DNA of 17,730 nucleotides from a virus, in the UHGV virus genome UHGV-1681856; one strand, given 5' to 3'. Positions 1 through 16,006 of the stretch are shown one piece after another (within the stretch, counting starts at the first letter, position 1; every line of letters starts with the position of its first letter). The position numbers were made by a program, and so were the translations under genes. The notes under the pieces are model-generated. The model had not been told where the DNA came from and did no database searches. It saw only the letters and a list, made by a program, of their open reading frames with translations.

Positions 1-645
1 TGGGTACCCAACAAGCCCAGTTTGCGGCGAAACGACATGAGAGAAGCGAGGACGTGGGATGCCGCGCTTGCACATCGCCACAATGCCGCCATCTATGTAC
101 ATGTCAACATCGCAGGCGTCTGCGAGAAATCTAAGCATTTCAACAGATGAGCCGGATAGATATGGGCTTTCTATTTTTTTGTCATCAATGCCGTAGCTTT
201 CGAAATGAAGACCGTCCATTTCACATATTTCTTTTGCAATATCAACAAGCTTAACCTCGCCATCTTTGCTGAATGCGTTTGATAGCGGGGAGACTTTGTT
301 TAATATTGCCGTAGCACTCTCGATAATAATCGAAATGTCAGGGGCGGCGGAAAAGTCAGGAAGAGCTGTAGTGATATTTCCCTTGAATATATTTGAGCGC
401 ACCCCGTTAATTTCGCAGTCGATAATCAGCATGTTCCGGAGTGCGTATTTCGTCATCCAGCGAACAGATGTTAGGCGGTTTATTTCTTGTATCGAAAGAT
501 TGTAAATCTGAACGCGAGCGGTCGGCATGAGTGCGCCGCCGCCGGTGGATATTGAGCACATCGCAGCTAGATTGCCGTACTCGTGAACATTTCCTTTGGC
601 GTCGGTTGTTGAAATAATAAGTCGTCTATTTGCGTAATTAAGCAT
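1..645 (-). CDS. Putative tail/baseplate protein, 5' partial in window (N-terminal 215 codons; 3' end lies beyond position 1)
   Basis: Minus-strand ATG at 645..643 and an open frame with no stop through position 1 (my own translation; not in the ORF track because it has no in-window stop). Overlaps the stop of the upstream gene by 8 bp, consistent with the operon. Function inferred only from position downstream of the tape measure gene. Confidence 0.4.
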   Translation of the reverse strand, partial: MLNYANRRLIISTTDAKGNVHEYGNLAAMCSISTGGGALMPTARVQIYNLSIQEINRLTSVRWMTKYALRNMLIIDCEINGVRSNIFKGNITTALPDFSAAPDISIIIESATAILNKVSPLSNAFSKDGEVKLVDIAKEICEMDGLHFESYGIDDKKIESPYLSGSSVEMLRFLADACDVDMYIDGGIVAMCKRGIPRPRFSHVVSPQTGLVGYP

Positions 646-961
646 TTTTATTGTCTATTGCGATTAATTTAAAGTCTTTTGATGCAAAATTATCCGAAGT
701 GAGTAAGGTTTCATCATCTTCGCAGAAAAACATAATGTCAAAATCGATAGAGTATGGAAGCCCTATGATCGGGGCGTTTGTCATGCATGGGCGACCAGCG
801 CAAATAAGCTCACCATCCTGAGTGAAAACATCAGCAAAGATTTTGCCATGACGCGCCGTGAGCGTGATTTTTATAGAAAAATCGCCGATTGTTGCTGTAA
901 TTTGCTGCCTGCCGACTTTTTCTATCGATATTTCGTAAAACTCTGCCATTTTATAACCCAA
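638..961 (-). CDS. Hypothetical tail-associated protein (107 aa)
   Basis: ORF packed between neighbours with short overlaps (start overlaps the upstream stop region at 951..961). No recognisable motif; function from synteny only. Confidence 0.4.
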   Translation of the reverse strand: MGYKMAEFYEISIEKVGRQQITATIGDFSIKITLTARHGKIFADVFTQDGELICAGRPCMTNAPIIGLPYSIDFDIMFFCEDDETLLTSDNFASKDFKLIAIDNKNA

Positions 962-11419: not shown

Positions 11420-12839
11420 TACTTAGTCCTCTAATGATTTCATCGAACTCATCCGCATCGTCTCGTTGAACTTCGGGATAAATTGGCCGTTCCTCGGCAT
11501 CTAGTGAGCCGCGAATATCGTCAGAGCTTGCTGCGCCAACACTGGCGTACGCAACATGCATTCTGGATTTAATCTCTTGAATCTCGGCTTCTTCGCGTTC
11601 TGACATACTCATCAACGGATTGAAGATGAAATCAGCGTCATCTGTCCCGAACTCAGACATCTCAATCTGAGACAAAAGCCTTTGAATGAGGGGAAGTAGG
11701 CAGTTGTCTTGAATCCCTGCGATGAAGTCGTAATAGACCTTAATCTCGCCATCGCTCGATGCATTGAGGCCGGACGGCGTGATTCCGAGAAGTTTCACGA
11801 GCGGCACGCGAGCAACGGCTGACATTTGCTCTTGAGTCTGTCTAACTAAGTCAGCGATGCCGGAGAGCGGCGTAGCGAACTGGAAGAACTCTTCAGTTTC
11901 TTTGTTTAGTAACAGTAAGCCTCGATTATCACGGAATTTATTGAACAACTCTGCGCGCATTGTGAGTGCATTTACATCATCTTCCTGAAGCGAAGACATC
12001 ATGTCTGTCTTGATGCCTGACACAGAGTATGATTTCAACAAGTCTGCGGATGATTCAACGGCATTGTGCCAACGTCTAACGTACGGCCACATCACCTGAG
12101 TAAGTGAAATTCCGTGCATCTGATACATCGGCTTAATCATATCCACGACCGGGAACGGTACGACGTGAAGCAGATGGTCATGATGAACTTCGCGTGCCAT
12201 TAAGTACCATTTGTCGGGGTTGTACCAAGATGGTGACAAGGGGTTTGCCGTGTCGTATGAAATCGGGTTTGCGTAAATCCCATCAATCACAATCAGCTTT
12301 TTGACTTTTGATTCGCCACTCAGCGGAAGCCTCTCGTCGACGTTCGTGTTGTCAGTAAGCGATGCGGACATCAAAACCATCGAGCCGCCGTAAAACAGAC
12401 TAGAGACGAGGGCGTCACGGAATATCTTTCGTGCATTCAGTTTTTTAAGCTGATTAGTCAGAAACTCTTTGACTTCAGGGTTTTCGTGGCTTACCTCCCC
12501 CCACTCCCTGAGCGAATCGGAACTGATTGCATCTACCGCGGCGCGAATCTCCGGGATTTGGCTAAGGGAGGAGAGGGCTTGAAAGCCAATGAACCCGAAG
12601 TTCGCGGAACCTGTTTCTGCATAGCCCGCATTCAGCAAGCCGGCGGCGGACATGGCACAGGAGTCGGAAAGAGAGCTGCGGCCAACGCCGGCCACGGGAT
12701 TACGAACGCGGGCGGCGGAAAATCCGTCGAATTCGTCATTTTTAGCATTTTGTGCTAATTTCCTATACAGGGAACTTAGCATAATCTGCTTCTTTTCTTC
12801 CTTCTCTTGCTGTTTTCTGCTAAAAAACCGTTTAAACAT
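11385..12839 (-). CDS. Portal protein (484 aa)
   Basis: About 55 kDa ORF starting 3 bp after the large terminase stop and followed by the Mu F-like gene, the canonical portal position. Acidic C-terminal tail. Confidence 0.7.
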   Translation of the reverse strand: MFKRFFSRKQQEKEEKKQIMLSSLYRKLAQNAKNDEFDGFSAARVRNPVAGVGRSSLSDSCAMSAAGLLNAGYAETGSANFGFIGFQALSSLSQIPEIRAAVDAISSDSLREWGEVSHENPEVKEFLTNQLKKLNARKIFRDALVSSLFYGGSMVLMSASLTDNTNVDERLPLSGESKVKKLIVIDGIYANPISYDTANPLSPSWYNPDKWYLMAREVHHDHLLHVVPFPVVDMIKPMYQMHGISLTQVMWPYVRRWHNAVESSADLLKSYSVSGIKTDMMSSLQEDDVNALTMRAELFNKFRDNRGLLLLNKETEEFFQFATPLSGIADLVRQTQEQMSAVARVPLVKLLGITPSGLNASSDGEIKVYYDFIAGIQDNCLLPLIQRLLSQIEMSEFGTDDADFIFNPLMSMSEREEAEIQEIKSRMHVAYASVGAASSDDIRGSLDAEERPIYPEVQRDDADEFDEIIRGLSNGKDNPTPNAG

Positions 12840-14637: not shown

Positions 14638-14668
14638 TTATACCAAGAAATTTCAAATATTAGAATAA

Positions 14669-14701
14669 AATGCTAATTCACTAGGGTGGGTTTTTAGCAT
14701 T
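14669..14701. promoter_or_regulatory. Inverted repeat AATGCTAA-(17 bp)-TTAGCATT in the divergent terS/rusA intergenic region
   Basis: Perfect 8-bp arms at 14669..14676 and 14694..14701. Candidate operator or regulator-binding site. Confidence 0.3.
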
Positions 14702-14753
14702 AATACGCACATTTACTGCTGATATTGAAATTATATTGCATATGGATAAAAAA

Positions 14754-14782
14754 TTGTGAATTTTGGGATAATGTCGTAATAT
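14754..14782 (+). promoter_or_regulatory. Candidate sigma70-type promoter upstream of rusA
   Basis: -35-like TTGTGA (14754..14759), 17-bp spacer, -10-like TAATAT (14777..14782). Eyeballed only; AT-rich context. Confidence 0.25.
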
Positions 14783-14813
14783 ACGATCTCTTTATTCAAT
14801 CAAACGAAAGGGC

Positions 14814-15188
14814 ATGAAGATGAAATCCAGAAGACTGTTGCTACCCTACCCAATCAGTGCAAATAGGTATTGGCGGGTGTATCGTGGCCGGGTTATTCAA
14901 TCTCGTGATGCAGGTCTATACAAGCGAGATGTGGCAAAACTTGCAAAAGCATCGGGAGTTGAGGTGATACATGGGAATGTTGAAGTAAAAGTAACGCTCA
15001 GGCCGAAGATGACAAAATCAGGCGTTGAGTATAAAAAGCGTCTTGACTTAGATAATTGCCTGAAGGTGGTGTTGGATAGCTTAAACGGCGTGATGTATGA
15101 AGATGATTCGCAGATTGTTGCAATCTCTGCGCATATTGGGGAGGGATTGCCGCTCGGGGGGGTTGACGTAGAGGTTATTTATAGTTAG
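14814..15188 (+). CDS. rusA: RusA-like Holliday junction resolvase (124 aa)
   Basis: N-terminal LPYPISANRYW and acidic cluster LDLDNCLKVVLDSLNG match the RusA family signature (conserved Asp residues). Size is typical. Confidence 0.8.
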   Translation: MKMKSRRLLLPYPISANRYWRVYRGRVIQSRDAGLYKRDVAKLAKASGVEVIHGNVEVKVTLRPKMTKSGVEYKKRLDLDNCLKVVLDSLNGVMYEDDSQIVAISAHIGEGLPLGGVDVEVIYS

Positions 15189-15223: not shown

Positions 15224-15252
15224 GCCGCCCACTAGTTGGGCGGTCTTTTTTT
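15224..15252 (+). terminator. Intrinsic terminator downstream of rusA
   Basis: Stem CCGCCCA / TGGGCGG (7 bp plus a G-U) with loop CTAGT, followed by TTTTTTT at 15246..15252. Confidence 0.6.
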
Positions 15253-15260
15253 GTCCGGGT

Positions 15261-15320
15261 GTGCCGAAAATTGTCAGCTTGTGCCGTTTTTTTACGGGGT
15301 GAACTGACATTTTTTGTCAC
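15261..15320. repeat. 60-bp palindromic repeat, copy 1 (59/60 identical to copy 2)
   Basis: GTGCCGAAAATTGTCAGCTTGTGCCGTTTTTTTACGGGGTGAACTGACATTTTTTGTCAC. Internal dyad TGTCAG...CTGACA around CCGT-TTTTTT-ACGG, followed by T6. Confidence 0.8.
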
Positions 15321-15343
15321 TATTGTTTACGCACCAATATAAA
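15314..15343 (+). promoter_or_regulatory. Candidate promoter overlapping the 3' end of repeat copy 1
   Basis: -35-like TTGTCA (15314..15319), 18-bp spacer, -10-like TATAAA (15338..15343). Would drive the acidic-protein gene at 15437. Confidence 0.25.
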
Positions 15344-15436
15344 TCAATAACTTACACTTTGGCACATGCTTTGCTAGATACTAGGCAAGAGGAACGAAAG
15401 TTCCGGTTCTTAAACTAGATTGAAAGGAAATTTGAA

Positions 15437-15739
15437 ATGGAGAACTTTACAGAAGAAGAGAGCGATAGTGCGGCTTTCAGAGAAATAGAGGAGAAGCTTG
15501 AAATACTTATTAATGAAGGCAAAACCATTGATTATGAAGAGGAGATGAAACTCAAAGAATTGCAAGTGATTGAACTGAGGGGAGATTTGGAGGATATAAG
15601 CATGGAAGCAATACACCATGCTTATATTCAGAATGATGTGAGATATCTGAAAGCGTACGGTAAGGAGAGATACATCGCCAGATGCCGTATCGCCCTTGAC
15701 GCTGCCGAGAGATGCTTACAAGAACTGGAGAATGAATGA
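15437..15739 (+). CDS. Small highly acidic protein (100 aa; about 27 Asp+Glu versus 13 Lys+Arg), unknown function
   Basis: ORF with a good initiation region (AAAGGAAATTTGAAATGG). Predicted helical. Sits in the accessory cassette bounded by terminators. Confidence 0.5.
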   Translation: MENFTEEESDSAAFREIEEKLEILINEGKTIDYEEEMKLKELQVIELRGDLEDISMEAIHHAYIQNDVRYLKAYGKERYIARCRIALDAAERCLQELENE

Positions 15740-15831
15740 TGAAAGAATGGAAACACGCAATCACATTATGCATCCTGATGTTTGGCTTGCCGGTCGCTGC
15801 TGAACTGATACGAATCTACTTTATTAAATAA
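15736..15831 (+). CDS. Putative 31-aa hydrophobic micro-protein (MMKEWKHAITLCILMFGLPVAAELIRIYFIK)
   Basis: ATG overlaps the stop of the acidic-protein ORF (ATGA), with GGAG 5 nt upstream. Hydrophobic core compatible with a single membrane helix. Below the ORF-track size cutoff, so found by hand. Confidence 0.3.
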   Translation: MMKEWKHAITLCILMFGLPVAAELIRIYFIK

Positions 15832-15840
15832 AGTACGGGA

Positions 15841-15863
15841 AGCAGGTTCTTCCTGCTATTTTA
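15841..15863 (+). terminator. Weak terminator-like hairpin
   Basis: Stem AGCAGG / CCTGCT with loop TTCTT, followed by ATTTTA. Confidence 0.3.
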
Positions 15864-16006
15864 ATCAACTTTAAAAGGAAATTTGAAATGGTACCGTATG
15901 GGTGAAGATGAACAAGAAAAGGAGTGAGAACTAATTAAGAAAATACAGAAAGTTTTATAAGTTACTATTTATAAATTTACCATTTAACAAATTAAAGGAT
16001 TTAAAA

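Follow-up and report, generated by a model that had tools for sequence, protein, structure and literature searches.

An AcrIF6-related acidic gene, present as a short allele, and its coupled hydrophobic micro-ORF in an early-gene island of a tailed phage

The stretch of DNA analysed here, referred to as the window, comprises the 17,730 nucleotides (nt) of the virus genome UHGV-1681856, a metagenome contig (ENA ERZ773076 NODE_595) of a tailed phage. Towards its right end, at 15437..15831, lie two overlapping open reading frames (ORFs), an acidic gene (ORF1) and a very short hydrophobic one (ORF2), which an earlier note made from the sequence alone had singled out as a translationally coupled pair with a candidate anti-defence role. 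Judged by sequence comparison, ORF1 belongs, in shortened form, to a very small family of phage proteins that is related to the anti-CRISPR protein AcrIF6 (AcrF6), and ORF2 is a real micro-protein gene, under much stronger purifying selection than ORF1. The pair consists of the following features:

15437..15739, plus strand: ORF1, acidic protein of 100 amino acids (aa), short-form allele of the AcrIF6-related family
15736..15831, plus strand: ORF2, hydrophobic micro-protein, 31 codons from 15736 or 30 aa from the conserved start at 15739
15727..15730, plus strand: Shine-Dalgarno sequence GGAG for ORF2, inside the end of ORF1, 5 nt from the ATG at 15736 and 8 nt from the ATG at 15739

The ORF1 product had been described as very acidic and predicted to be helical, and both statements were borne out: its 100 residues include 27 D/E against 13 K/R, with an isoelectric point (pI) of 4.5, and a single-sequence AlphaFold model is all-helical, though of low confidence (predicted local distance difference test score, pLDDT, 67). 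A longer N-terminus is excluded because of an in-frame TAG at 15416..15418. The family to which the protein belongs is very small. A word-indexed search of 5.8 billion proteins matched it solely with itself, and an exhaustive phmmer search of 1.84 billion representatives recovered a single relative of this protein (P0001), namely P0002, which has 130 aa, is 47% identical and is also found in IMG/VR (locus L005). The downstream adhesin gene of a further locus, L045, led to a third, far more divergent acidic allele (P0123, 133 aa), and with a profile search based on three sequences the family came to a total of seven proteins. All alleles other than that of the window are long forms of 130-133 aa, which are 47-53% identical to the window protein. 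Relatives were absent from 185,579 species genomes and from the JGI metagenome collection, and records of cultured phages gave no DNA or protein match, whether for the window region, for P0002 or for the AcrIF9-like gene described below. Neither the window protein nor its relatives matched Pfam, PHROGs, NCBIfam or PADLOC, a Foldseek search of the PDB with the single-sequence ORF1 model returned no match at E<1, and a search of the viral structures in BFVD with the better model, that of P0002, returned nothing. Weak matches to DUF6664, to a lectin, to a phrog annotated as ‘DNA methyltransferase’ and to an exosortase were rejected, being below threshold and differing between alleles.

The relationship to AcrIF6, a type I-F/I-E anti-CRISPR (PDB 6VQX chain A), is seen with the long forms. 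When a profile built from the family (alignment A6) was searched against the PDB sequences, AcrF6 was the top match at an E-value of 4.5e-4, the next match being at 0.77, and a comparison of the 130-aa family with AcrF6 by hhalign gave a probability of 93.6% (E 2e-7). The agreement extends over three motifs, the family’s NxxSIEQVVExIN corresponding to NILTIEQIIEAIN of AcrF6, its ADYAY to GYYAW, and its LEILIDAGAxVDYEEA to LEVLEERGAKIDRDAA. An AlphaFold model of P0002 built on a six-sequence alignment reached a pLDDT of 77 (~90 across residues 10-75), and its all-alpha fold could be superposed on AcrF6 (6VQX_A). AcrF6 is likewise strongly acidic, with 18 D/E and 3 K/R over the 77 aligned residues. 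The residues through which AcrF6 acts have been mapped by cryo-electron microscopy, N10 touching the CRISPR RNA (crRNA) and Y38, D41 and D45 touching T246/K247 of Cas8f (PMC7132274). N10 and Y38 align with N8 and the ADYAY positions of the family, and they are kept in four of the five and in all five long alleles, respectively; D45 lies within an insertion that is specific to AcrF6 relative to the long alleles. The long forms are therefore read from these alignments as an AcrIF6-like helical domain followed by a family-specific, helical C-terminal extension of ~45 aa, which falls outside AcrF6 in the alignment.

The earlier view that ORF1 could not be placed in any known family is correct as long as the window protein is taken by itself, since direct profile and structure searches with the window proteins found none, and it gives way once the 130-aa relatives bridge to AcrF6. 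The proposed anti-defence role gained support from the AcrIF6 homology and from AcrIF9-like neighbours (see below); what was not supported is the suggested route of DNA-mimic anti-restriction, as no Ocr- or ArdA-type match of sequence or fold was found in Pfam, PHROG, NCBIfam or the PDB, and acidity alone is in common. The family also departs from AcrIF6 in several respects: the identity is just ~23-25%, the C-terminal extension and an obligately coupled, putative membrane micro-ORF are added, no aca regulator is adjacent, and in the window allele the entire N-terminal half is missing, and with it the residues that contact Cas8f and the crRNA. Canonical AcrIF6 loci (Pseudomonas, Oceanimonas) are not known to have a micro-ORF, and aca1 or aca2 comes next instead.

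For the second gene of the pair, six full-length alleles of the acidic-gene locus from two phage backbones were compared, i.e., those of the window, L007, L046, L047, L049 and L045. The second phage group (L006, L007, L046 and L047) has a backbone that differs from that of the window phage and encodes a 2,400-2,800-aa LPD23/LPD39 protein. The ATGA overlap between the ORF1 stop and ORF2 at 15736..15739, the frame of 31 codons and its own GGAG had all been noted correctly. The overlap is limited to some alleles, however, and the start conserved in the relatives is the second ATG at 15739 (TGATG, 1-nt overlap), the first ATG at 15736 existing just where the upstream stop is TGA and not TAA. The 31-codon product is MMKEWKHAITLCILMFGLPVAAELIRIYFIK, and that from the conserved start is MKEWKHAITLCILMFGLPVAAELIRIYFIK (30 aa). 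Two checks suggested in the earlier note were run, on whether the pair co-occurs in other phages and on whether homologous cassettes have lost the micro-ORF frame: a hydrophobic ORF of 30-33 codons overlaps the end of the acidic gene in all six loci, on both backbones, and its frame is conserved. The junction itself takes different forms, being TAATG or ATGATG in some alleles and a 14-nt overlap in L045. There is no GGAG at the junction of L045, whereas the other five alleles keep the Shine-Dalgarno sequence as CTGGAGA. Five alleles have ORF2 in the -1 frame relative to ORF1, whereas L045 has it in +1, which rules out a fusion of the two by frameshifting.

A 31-codon frame in DNA of 36% GC is not beyond chance alone, and comparative data were therefore needed. 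Among the four close alleles (L007, L046, L047 and L049), 11 of the 12 variable sites of the micro-ORF are synonymous (binomial p ~3e-7 to 5e-6), and within the second phage group the pairwise ratio of nonsynonymous to synonymous differences (pN/pS) is 0-0.04. When the same genomes are compared, pN is 0-0.01 for the micro-protein versus 0.07-0.24 for the acidic protein. Between the window and L007, the frame of ORF2 is the sole frame that is open in both alleles, and a core of C-x-LMFGLP-x2-[AS]EL-x-RIY-[FL][IL]K-stop is kept across the alleles, of which one is ~45% divergent at the nucleotide level. Because it is conserved across alleles with synonymous changes dominant, the micro-ORF is a genuine gene, even if it was passed over by most gene callers. 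It was never found away from the acidic gene, and it is absent where the adhesin gene occurs without the acidic gene. The product has a Kyte-Doolittle hydropathy peak of 1.97 (19-residue window), a basic cap at the N-terminus and a Gly-Leu-Pro that is conserved; it matched no family in Pfam, PHROGs, PADLOC or NCBIfam. Matches in the species genomes and the JGI collection to a degenerate DNA pattern for ELIRIYFIK were all due to chance, and a role solely as leader peptide or attenuator was ruled out, the peptide sequence being conserved while the hairpin that follows it is not.

The surroundings of the pair point in the same direction as the AcrIF6 relationship. In the second phage group, the gene directly upstream of the acidic gene is a homologue of AcrIF9 (L006 9746..9964; 7bb5_A, E 5.9e-11, with E-values of 0.008-0.12 for other AcrIF9 structures), and an AcrIF9 paralogue heads the next operon in both groups. 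The latter lies at 12305..12517 in L006, and in the window phage at 12394..12606 of L001, a wider contig of the same phage, ~100 nt past the end of the window (E 1.5e-10). No Pfam or PHROG family was matched by these homologues. Since AcrIF9 homologues stand beside the acidic gene and at the next operon, the island that contains the pair is one of early anti-CRISPR genes, the pair having other acr genes beside it in the early or accessory region; the remaining neighbours are small ORFans and a MazG-like pyrophosphohydrolase. The AcrIF9 homologues, whose reference is the Aggregatibacter protein Aa1-AcrIF9 (PDB 7BB5), adjoin the pair in the islands, with the repeated promoter cassette driving them as well; they are neighbours and not members of it, and in the window phage the homologue is just outside the window. 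Among the AcrIF1-10 families tested against the type I-F system of Aggregatibacter, AcrIF6 and AcrIF9 alone were inhibitory (PMC9478129). PADLOC found no defence-system match for either product of the pair or for the neighbours. The second phage group holds two paralogous AcrIF9 copies.

The island probably belongs to phages of oral Neisseriaceae. Phages of the second group (L006, L046 and L047) contain two to three exact Neisseria uptake sequences per 12-19 kb, where ~0.04 would be expected, mostly of the AG-DUS type (DUS, DNA uptake sequence), and commensal Neisseria hosts are therefore indicated for them. In the window phage there is no exact uptake sequence, and five copies with one mismatch occur in 17.7 kb against about one expected (at 2732, 9342 and 14478, among others). 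A search of the literature on type I-F systems in Neisseria found nothing usable.

The window allele differs from all the others by its truncation, which the earlier note had not noticed. In the alignments, the window protein begins at about residue 36 of the long alleles, i.e., it is without their N-terminal ~35 aa and corresponds to AcrF6 residues ~52-86 plus the ~45-aa extension (YLKAYGKERYIARCR...LQELENE); the missing N-terminal half is encoded nowhere else in the 37 kb of the window phage that were examined. In the short form, the repeated cassette of promoter and ribosome-binding site (RBS) runs straight into codon ~36 of the long form. What is left has not drifted freely. Over the last 34-55 codons of ORF1, the ratio dN/dS after Jukes-Cantor (JC) correction is 0.14-0.16 relative to L007, indicating purifying selection, and the uncorrected pN/pS of the window ORF1 against the long forms is 0.35-0.73 (0.50-0.73 in region A and 0.35-0.41 in region B). 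Divergence from the long forms is higher in the retained AcrF6-like part (pN 0.32-0.42) than in the C-terminal extension (0.22-0.31). The identical window protein was also found on contigs with single-nucleotide polymorphisms (SNPs) elsewhere. We take the retained extension and the micro-protein to be the selected part of the window allele. One further broken gene was seen in L050, a contig of 1.2x coverage, where the long-form gene (491..748) is frameshifted into pieces of 85 and 25 aa; this split is most likely an assembly error and not a second truncated allele.

The regions that flank the pair contain the following additional features:

15224..15254, plus strand: intrinsic terminator after RusA, with an 8-bp stem (6 GC pairs) at 15224..15244, followed by CTTTTTTTGT; -15.5 kcal/mol
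15260..15439, plus strand: copy 1 of the promoter, leader and RBS cassette, 180 bp, ending exactly at the ORF1 ATG
15261..15320, no strand assigned: 17-nt inverted repeat (GTGCCGAAAATTGTCAG / CTGACATTTTTTGTCAC), 82% complementary, with 26 nt between the arms, overlapping the -35-like hexamer
15829..15863, plus strand: hairpin after ORF2, -12.4 kcal/mol, z = -3.1, with the tail AUUUUAAU
15871..15905, plus strand: echo of the RBS and ATG (AAAAGGAAATTTGAAATG) with a 5-codon ORF (15888..15905), homologous to the RBS and start of the second-group adhesin
16007..17137, plus strand: YadA-like trimeric autotransporter adhesin, 376 aa, with Pfam YadA head, stalk and anchor and an NCBIfam match
17653..17730, plus strand: start of cassette copy 2, which in the full contig drives the AcrIF9 homologue beyond the window end

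The promoter-like element upstream and the hairpin downstream that had been read from the sequence earlier were thus both found, the former as part of a 180-bp cassette. Because of the strong terminator after RusA, the pair is set apart as a separate transcription unit. In cassette copy 1, the hexamers TTGTCA and TATAAA stand 18 nt apart, a GNRA hairpin (GGAACGAAAGTTCC) lies in the leader, and the RBS is AAAGGAAATTTGAAATG; the two hexamers were read by eye and are absent from the list of an automated promoter scan. An Rfam search found no element in the leader. The window phage has three copies of the cassette, the two others being at 12217-12396 and 16362-16542 of L001 with 93-97% identity, and the copies end exactly at the start codons of three different operons; a single copy of 85% identity is present in the second phage group (L007 4824-4993). 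The cassette looks like a mobile or gene-converted regulatory unit, possibly the target of a single Aca-like regulator, for which the inverted repeat would be a candidate operator. In Aca-controlled acr operons, one regulator acts on several promoters (bioRxiv 10.64898/2026.07.27.740549). The loci described here resemble such operons in having a strong early promoter with overlapping inverted repeats and in the reuse of this element before several anti-defence operons; they differ in that no regulator of the helix-turn-helix (HTH) or ribbon-helix-helix (RHH) type was identified and in that the repeated unit is the whole 180-bp cassette at 93-97% identity.

The hairpin after ORF2 is a weak terminator or attenuator, and L007 has no conserved counterpart of it (-5.6 kcal/mol, z +0.26). 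The 5-codon ORF behind it reads ATG GTA CCG TAT GGG TGA and is the orphaned adhesin start of the donor phage type. The segment from the ORF1 ATG to 15890 ends rightward at the 20-nt RBS-ATG echo, and the native leader of the adhesin follows from ~15918. As the pair is bounded by direct repeats of the RBS-ATG motif, a recombinational import, or a shuffling of cassettes at the shared RBS, is suggested; the pair cassette has the look of such an import.

The adhesin gene is found downstream of the pair in every pair locus long enough to show it, and it also occurs without the pair. Its product has a signal peptide, head repeats, a stalk and an anchor, followed by an unusual 38-aa tail (GGKPEVINQPVIVREVVREVVVREVAEAPKGKKIRQ) that is kept in all homologues seen. 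The gene is present in at least three phage backbones and has hundreds of metagenomic relatives. The prophage-borne Eib proteins (E. coli ECOR-9 prophages) are comparable as phage-carried YadA-like adhesins, the similarity being weak (26% identity); this comparison concerns the downstream gene and not the pair, and here the adhesin lies in an early, anti-defence-type operon.

Taking these results together, the best explanation of the whole, in which we have somewhat better than even confidence, is an AcrIF6-related early anti-defence operon with a coupled micro-protein partner, of which the window carries a short allele. The pair would accordingly be a two-gene early operon in an anti-CRISPR or anti-defence island, carried by a tailed phage that comes from metagenomes of human and probably oral origin and whose host is probably a member of the Neisseriaceae. 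By homology, the full-length members may act in the manner of AcrF6, preventing the engagement of target DNA by binding to the type I-F Cascade where Cas8f and Cas7.6f meet. ORF2 would encode a 30-33-aa, probably single-pass membrane micro-protein that is translated via coupling to ORF1; the hydropathy peak, the basic N-terminal cap and the Gly-Leu-Pro kink suggest that it inserts in the inner membrane. We infer that the micro-protein may be a stoichiometric partner of the C-terminal extension, which could, e.g., tether or stabilise the acidic protein at the inner membrane or add an activity. The short form of the window would then retain whatever the distal half, the C-terminal extension and the micro-protein do, and the type I-F anti-CRISPR role in the window phage would be covered by the AcrIF9 homologue under the next promoter copy.

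A more far-reaching proposal, offered tentatively and on balance doubtful, is that an Acr lineage gained a C-terminal adaptor together with an obligate 30-aa membrane partner, so that the module would act at the inner membrane, either by tethering or sequestering Cascade or by adding a counter-defence that is independent of Cascade; the window allele would be a separation-of-function form that keeps the second activity only.

Several observations weigh against an anti-CRISPR operon. The equivalents of AcrF6 N10, Y38, D41 and D45 are missing from the window allele, the whole segment being gone, and its anti-CRISPR activity is therefore doubtful; that it retains the canonical activity of AcrIF6 is considered unlikely. 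Even among the long alleles, the equivalent of D41 is D or E in three of the five and K in the other two. The window protein by itself has no detectable similarity to AcrF6, the link being transitive via the long relatives, and the AlphaFold2 model of P0002 was built on six sequences alone, with low confidence in the C-terminal third. Searches of the neighbours with Pfam and PHROGs found no aca-type HTH/RHH regulator beside the pair. The adhesin, moreover, lies downstream in every pair locus, which makes a functional link between it and the pair possible. Finally, membrane proteins are atypical of acr operons, and membrane association counts as a negative feature in Acr prediction (PMC7391736).

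The possible link to the adhesin is the basis of one alternative, according to which the micro-protein works for the adhesin, possibly together with the acidic protein, as an inner-membrane helper or as a regulator of its export or expression. The constant position of the YadA-like gene on two phage backbones would be explained, and the U-tailed hairpin that in the window separates the micro-ORF from the adhesin gene, as well as the 38-aa tail past the membrane anchor, which could reach the periplasm, would fit. Adhesins of 86-89% identity are, however, found in a third phage type of 35% GC that has neither the acidic gene nor the micro-ORF, a 68-aa gene intervenes between pair and adhesin in L047, the hairpin is not kept in L007, and the physical coupling of the micro-ORF is to the acidic gene rather than to the adhesin; the probability of this alternative is accordingly put quite low. 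The micro-protein might instead be a small membrane effector in its own right, such as a toxin-like peptide for host take-over or a superinfection-exclusion determinant, with the acidic protein as a co-expressed companion or antagonist, as the earlier note had also considered. Its size, hydrophobicity and basic pI recall TisB or Fst, its conservation far exceeds that of the acidic protein, as expected if it had a conserved target in the host membrane, and it is retained even beside the truncated window allele. Yet it matches no family in sequence, antisense RNA, and not translational coupling to a protein gene, is how the known small toxins of this type are kept in check, the lysis cassette of the phage is located elsewhere, and the micro-ORF was never found separate from the acidic gene, so that we regard a free-standing effector as improbable.

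Two further readings concern the status of the genes themselves. ORF1 of the window could be a decaying remnant of a long form, kept open merely to bring ribosomes and a Shine-Dalgarno sequence to the selected micro-ORF. The loss of ~35 aa at the N-terminus, and thereby of every AcrF6 contact residue that has been mapped, would agree with this, as would the greater divergence of the retained AcrF6-like part relative to the extension, and the two RBS-ATG copies that flank the cassette suggest illegitimate or short-homology recombination. On the other side, the frame is intact over 100 codons in DNA of 36-43% GC, the pN/pS and dN/dS values given above point to constraint, the protein is identical on contigs with SNPs elsewhere, and ORF1 has its own full-strength promoter/RBS cassette; decay of this sort therefore appears to us improbable too. 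That the micro-ORF is a chance open frame in the 3′ untranslated region is scarcely credible: we estimate that an open frame of 31 codons would arise by chance with a probability of ~10% at this base composition, and most gene callers skipped the micro-ORF, but it is kept in all six alleles, including the highly divergent one, with nearly all changes among the close alleles being synonymous, its frame alone is open in both alleles compared, and the Shine-Dalgarno sequence and the start are conserved.

The AcrIF6 and AcrIF9 proteins are well known; the pairing with a coupled micro-protein is undescribed for anti-CRISPRs in the literature searched, in which nothing usable on membrane partners of Acrs was found and no description of a subfamily with the extension and a coupled membrane micro-protein. 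The usual description of an anti-CRISPR is that of a soluble inhibitor encoded by a single gene, and an Acr-like family with an always coupled, better conserved membrane micro-protein would be a new architecture of counter-defence. In its length, hydrophobicity and basic N-terminal cap, the micro-protein resembles small single-pass membrane proteins and type I toxins of ~30 aa (TisB, Fst, AcrZ-like modulators), which is a lead at most; the sequences are unrelated, translation of the micro-ORF is coupled to that of a protein gene, and nothing points to an antisense RNA. The micro-ORF is a concrete example of a phage micro-protein that most gene callers overlook, and the natural short allele allows testing which half of the module does what. 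The loci also add AcrIF6-like and AcrIF9-like genes, undetected by standard sequence searches, in uncultured phages of probably oral Neisseriaceae.

Some minor observations concern the rest of the window and the related loci. An acidic helical ORFan of 61-68 aa (MKTVTISEVEYEILKNAAEKLVKFNDELLDKM...), without a match in the PDB or Pfam, is found upstream of the pair in L045 (3160..3345) and between pair and adhesin in L047 (6546..6752), and it may be a further shuffled anti-defence candidate. In the window, a gene for a MazG-like nucleotide pyrophosphohydrolase (17187..17648; PHROG 671, E 5.5e-30) belongs to the same early operon, where it is situated between the adhesin and the next promoter cassette. 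The minus strand carries the late genes, i.e., E217-type tail genes, portal, TerL and an Sf6-type TerS, and the early or accessory block on the plus strand begins at RusA (14814..15188; Pfam E 3.5e-19). TerS (minus) and RusA (plus) diverge from a 177-bp AT-rich spacer at 14638..14813. The early block points away from the packaging genes, and its order (RusA ... NinG ... methylase ... Sak/YqaJ) is unlike that of lambdoid phages.

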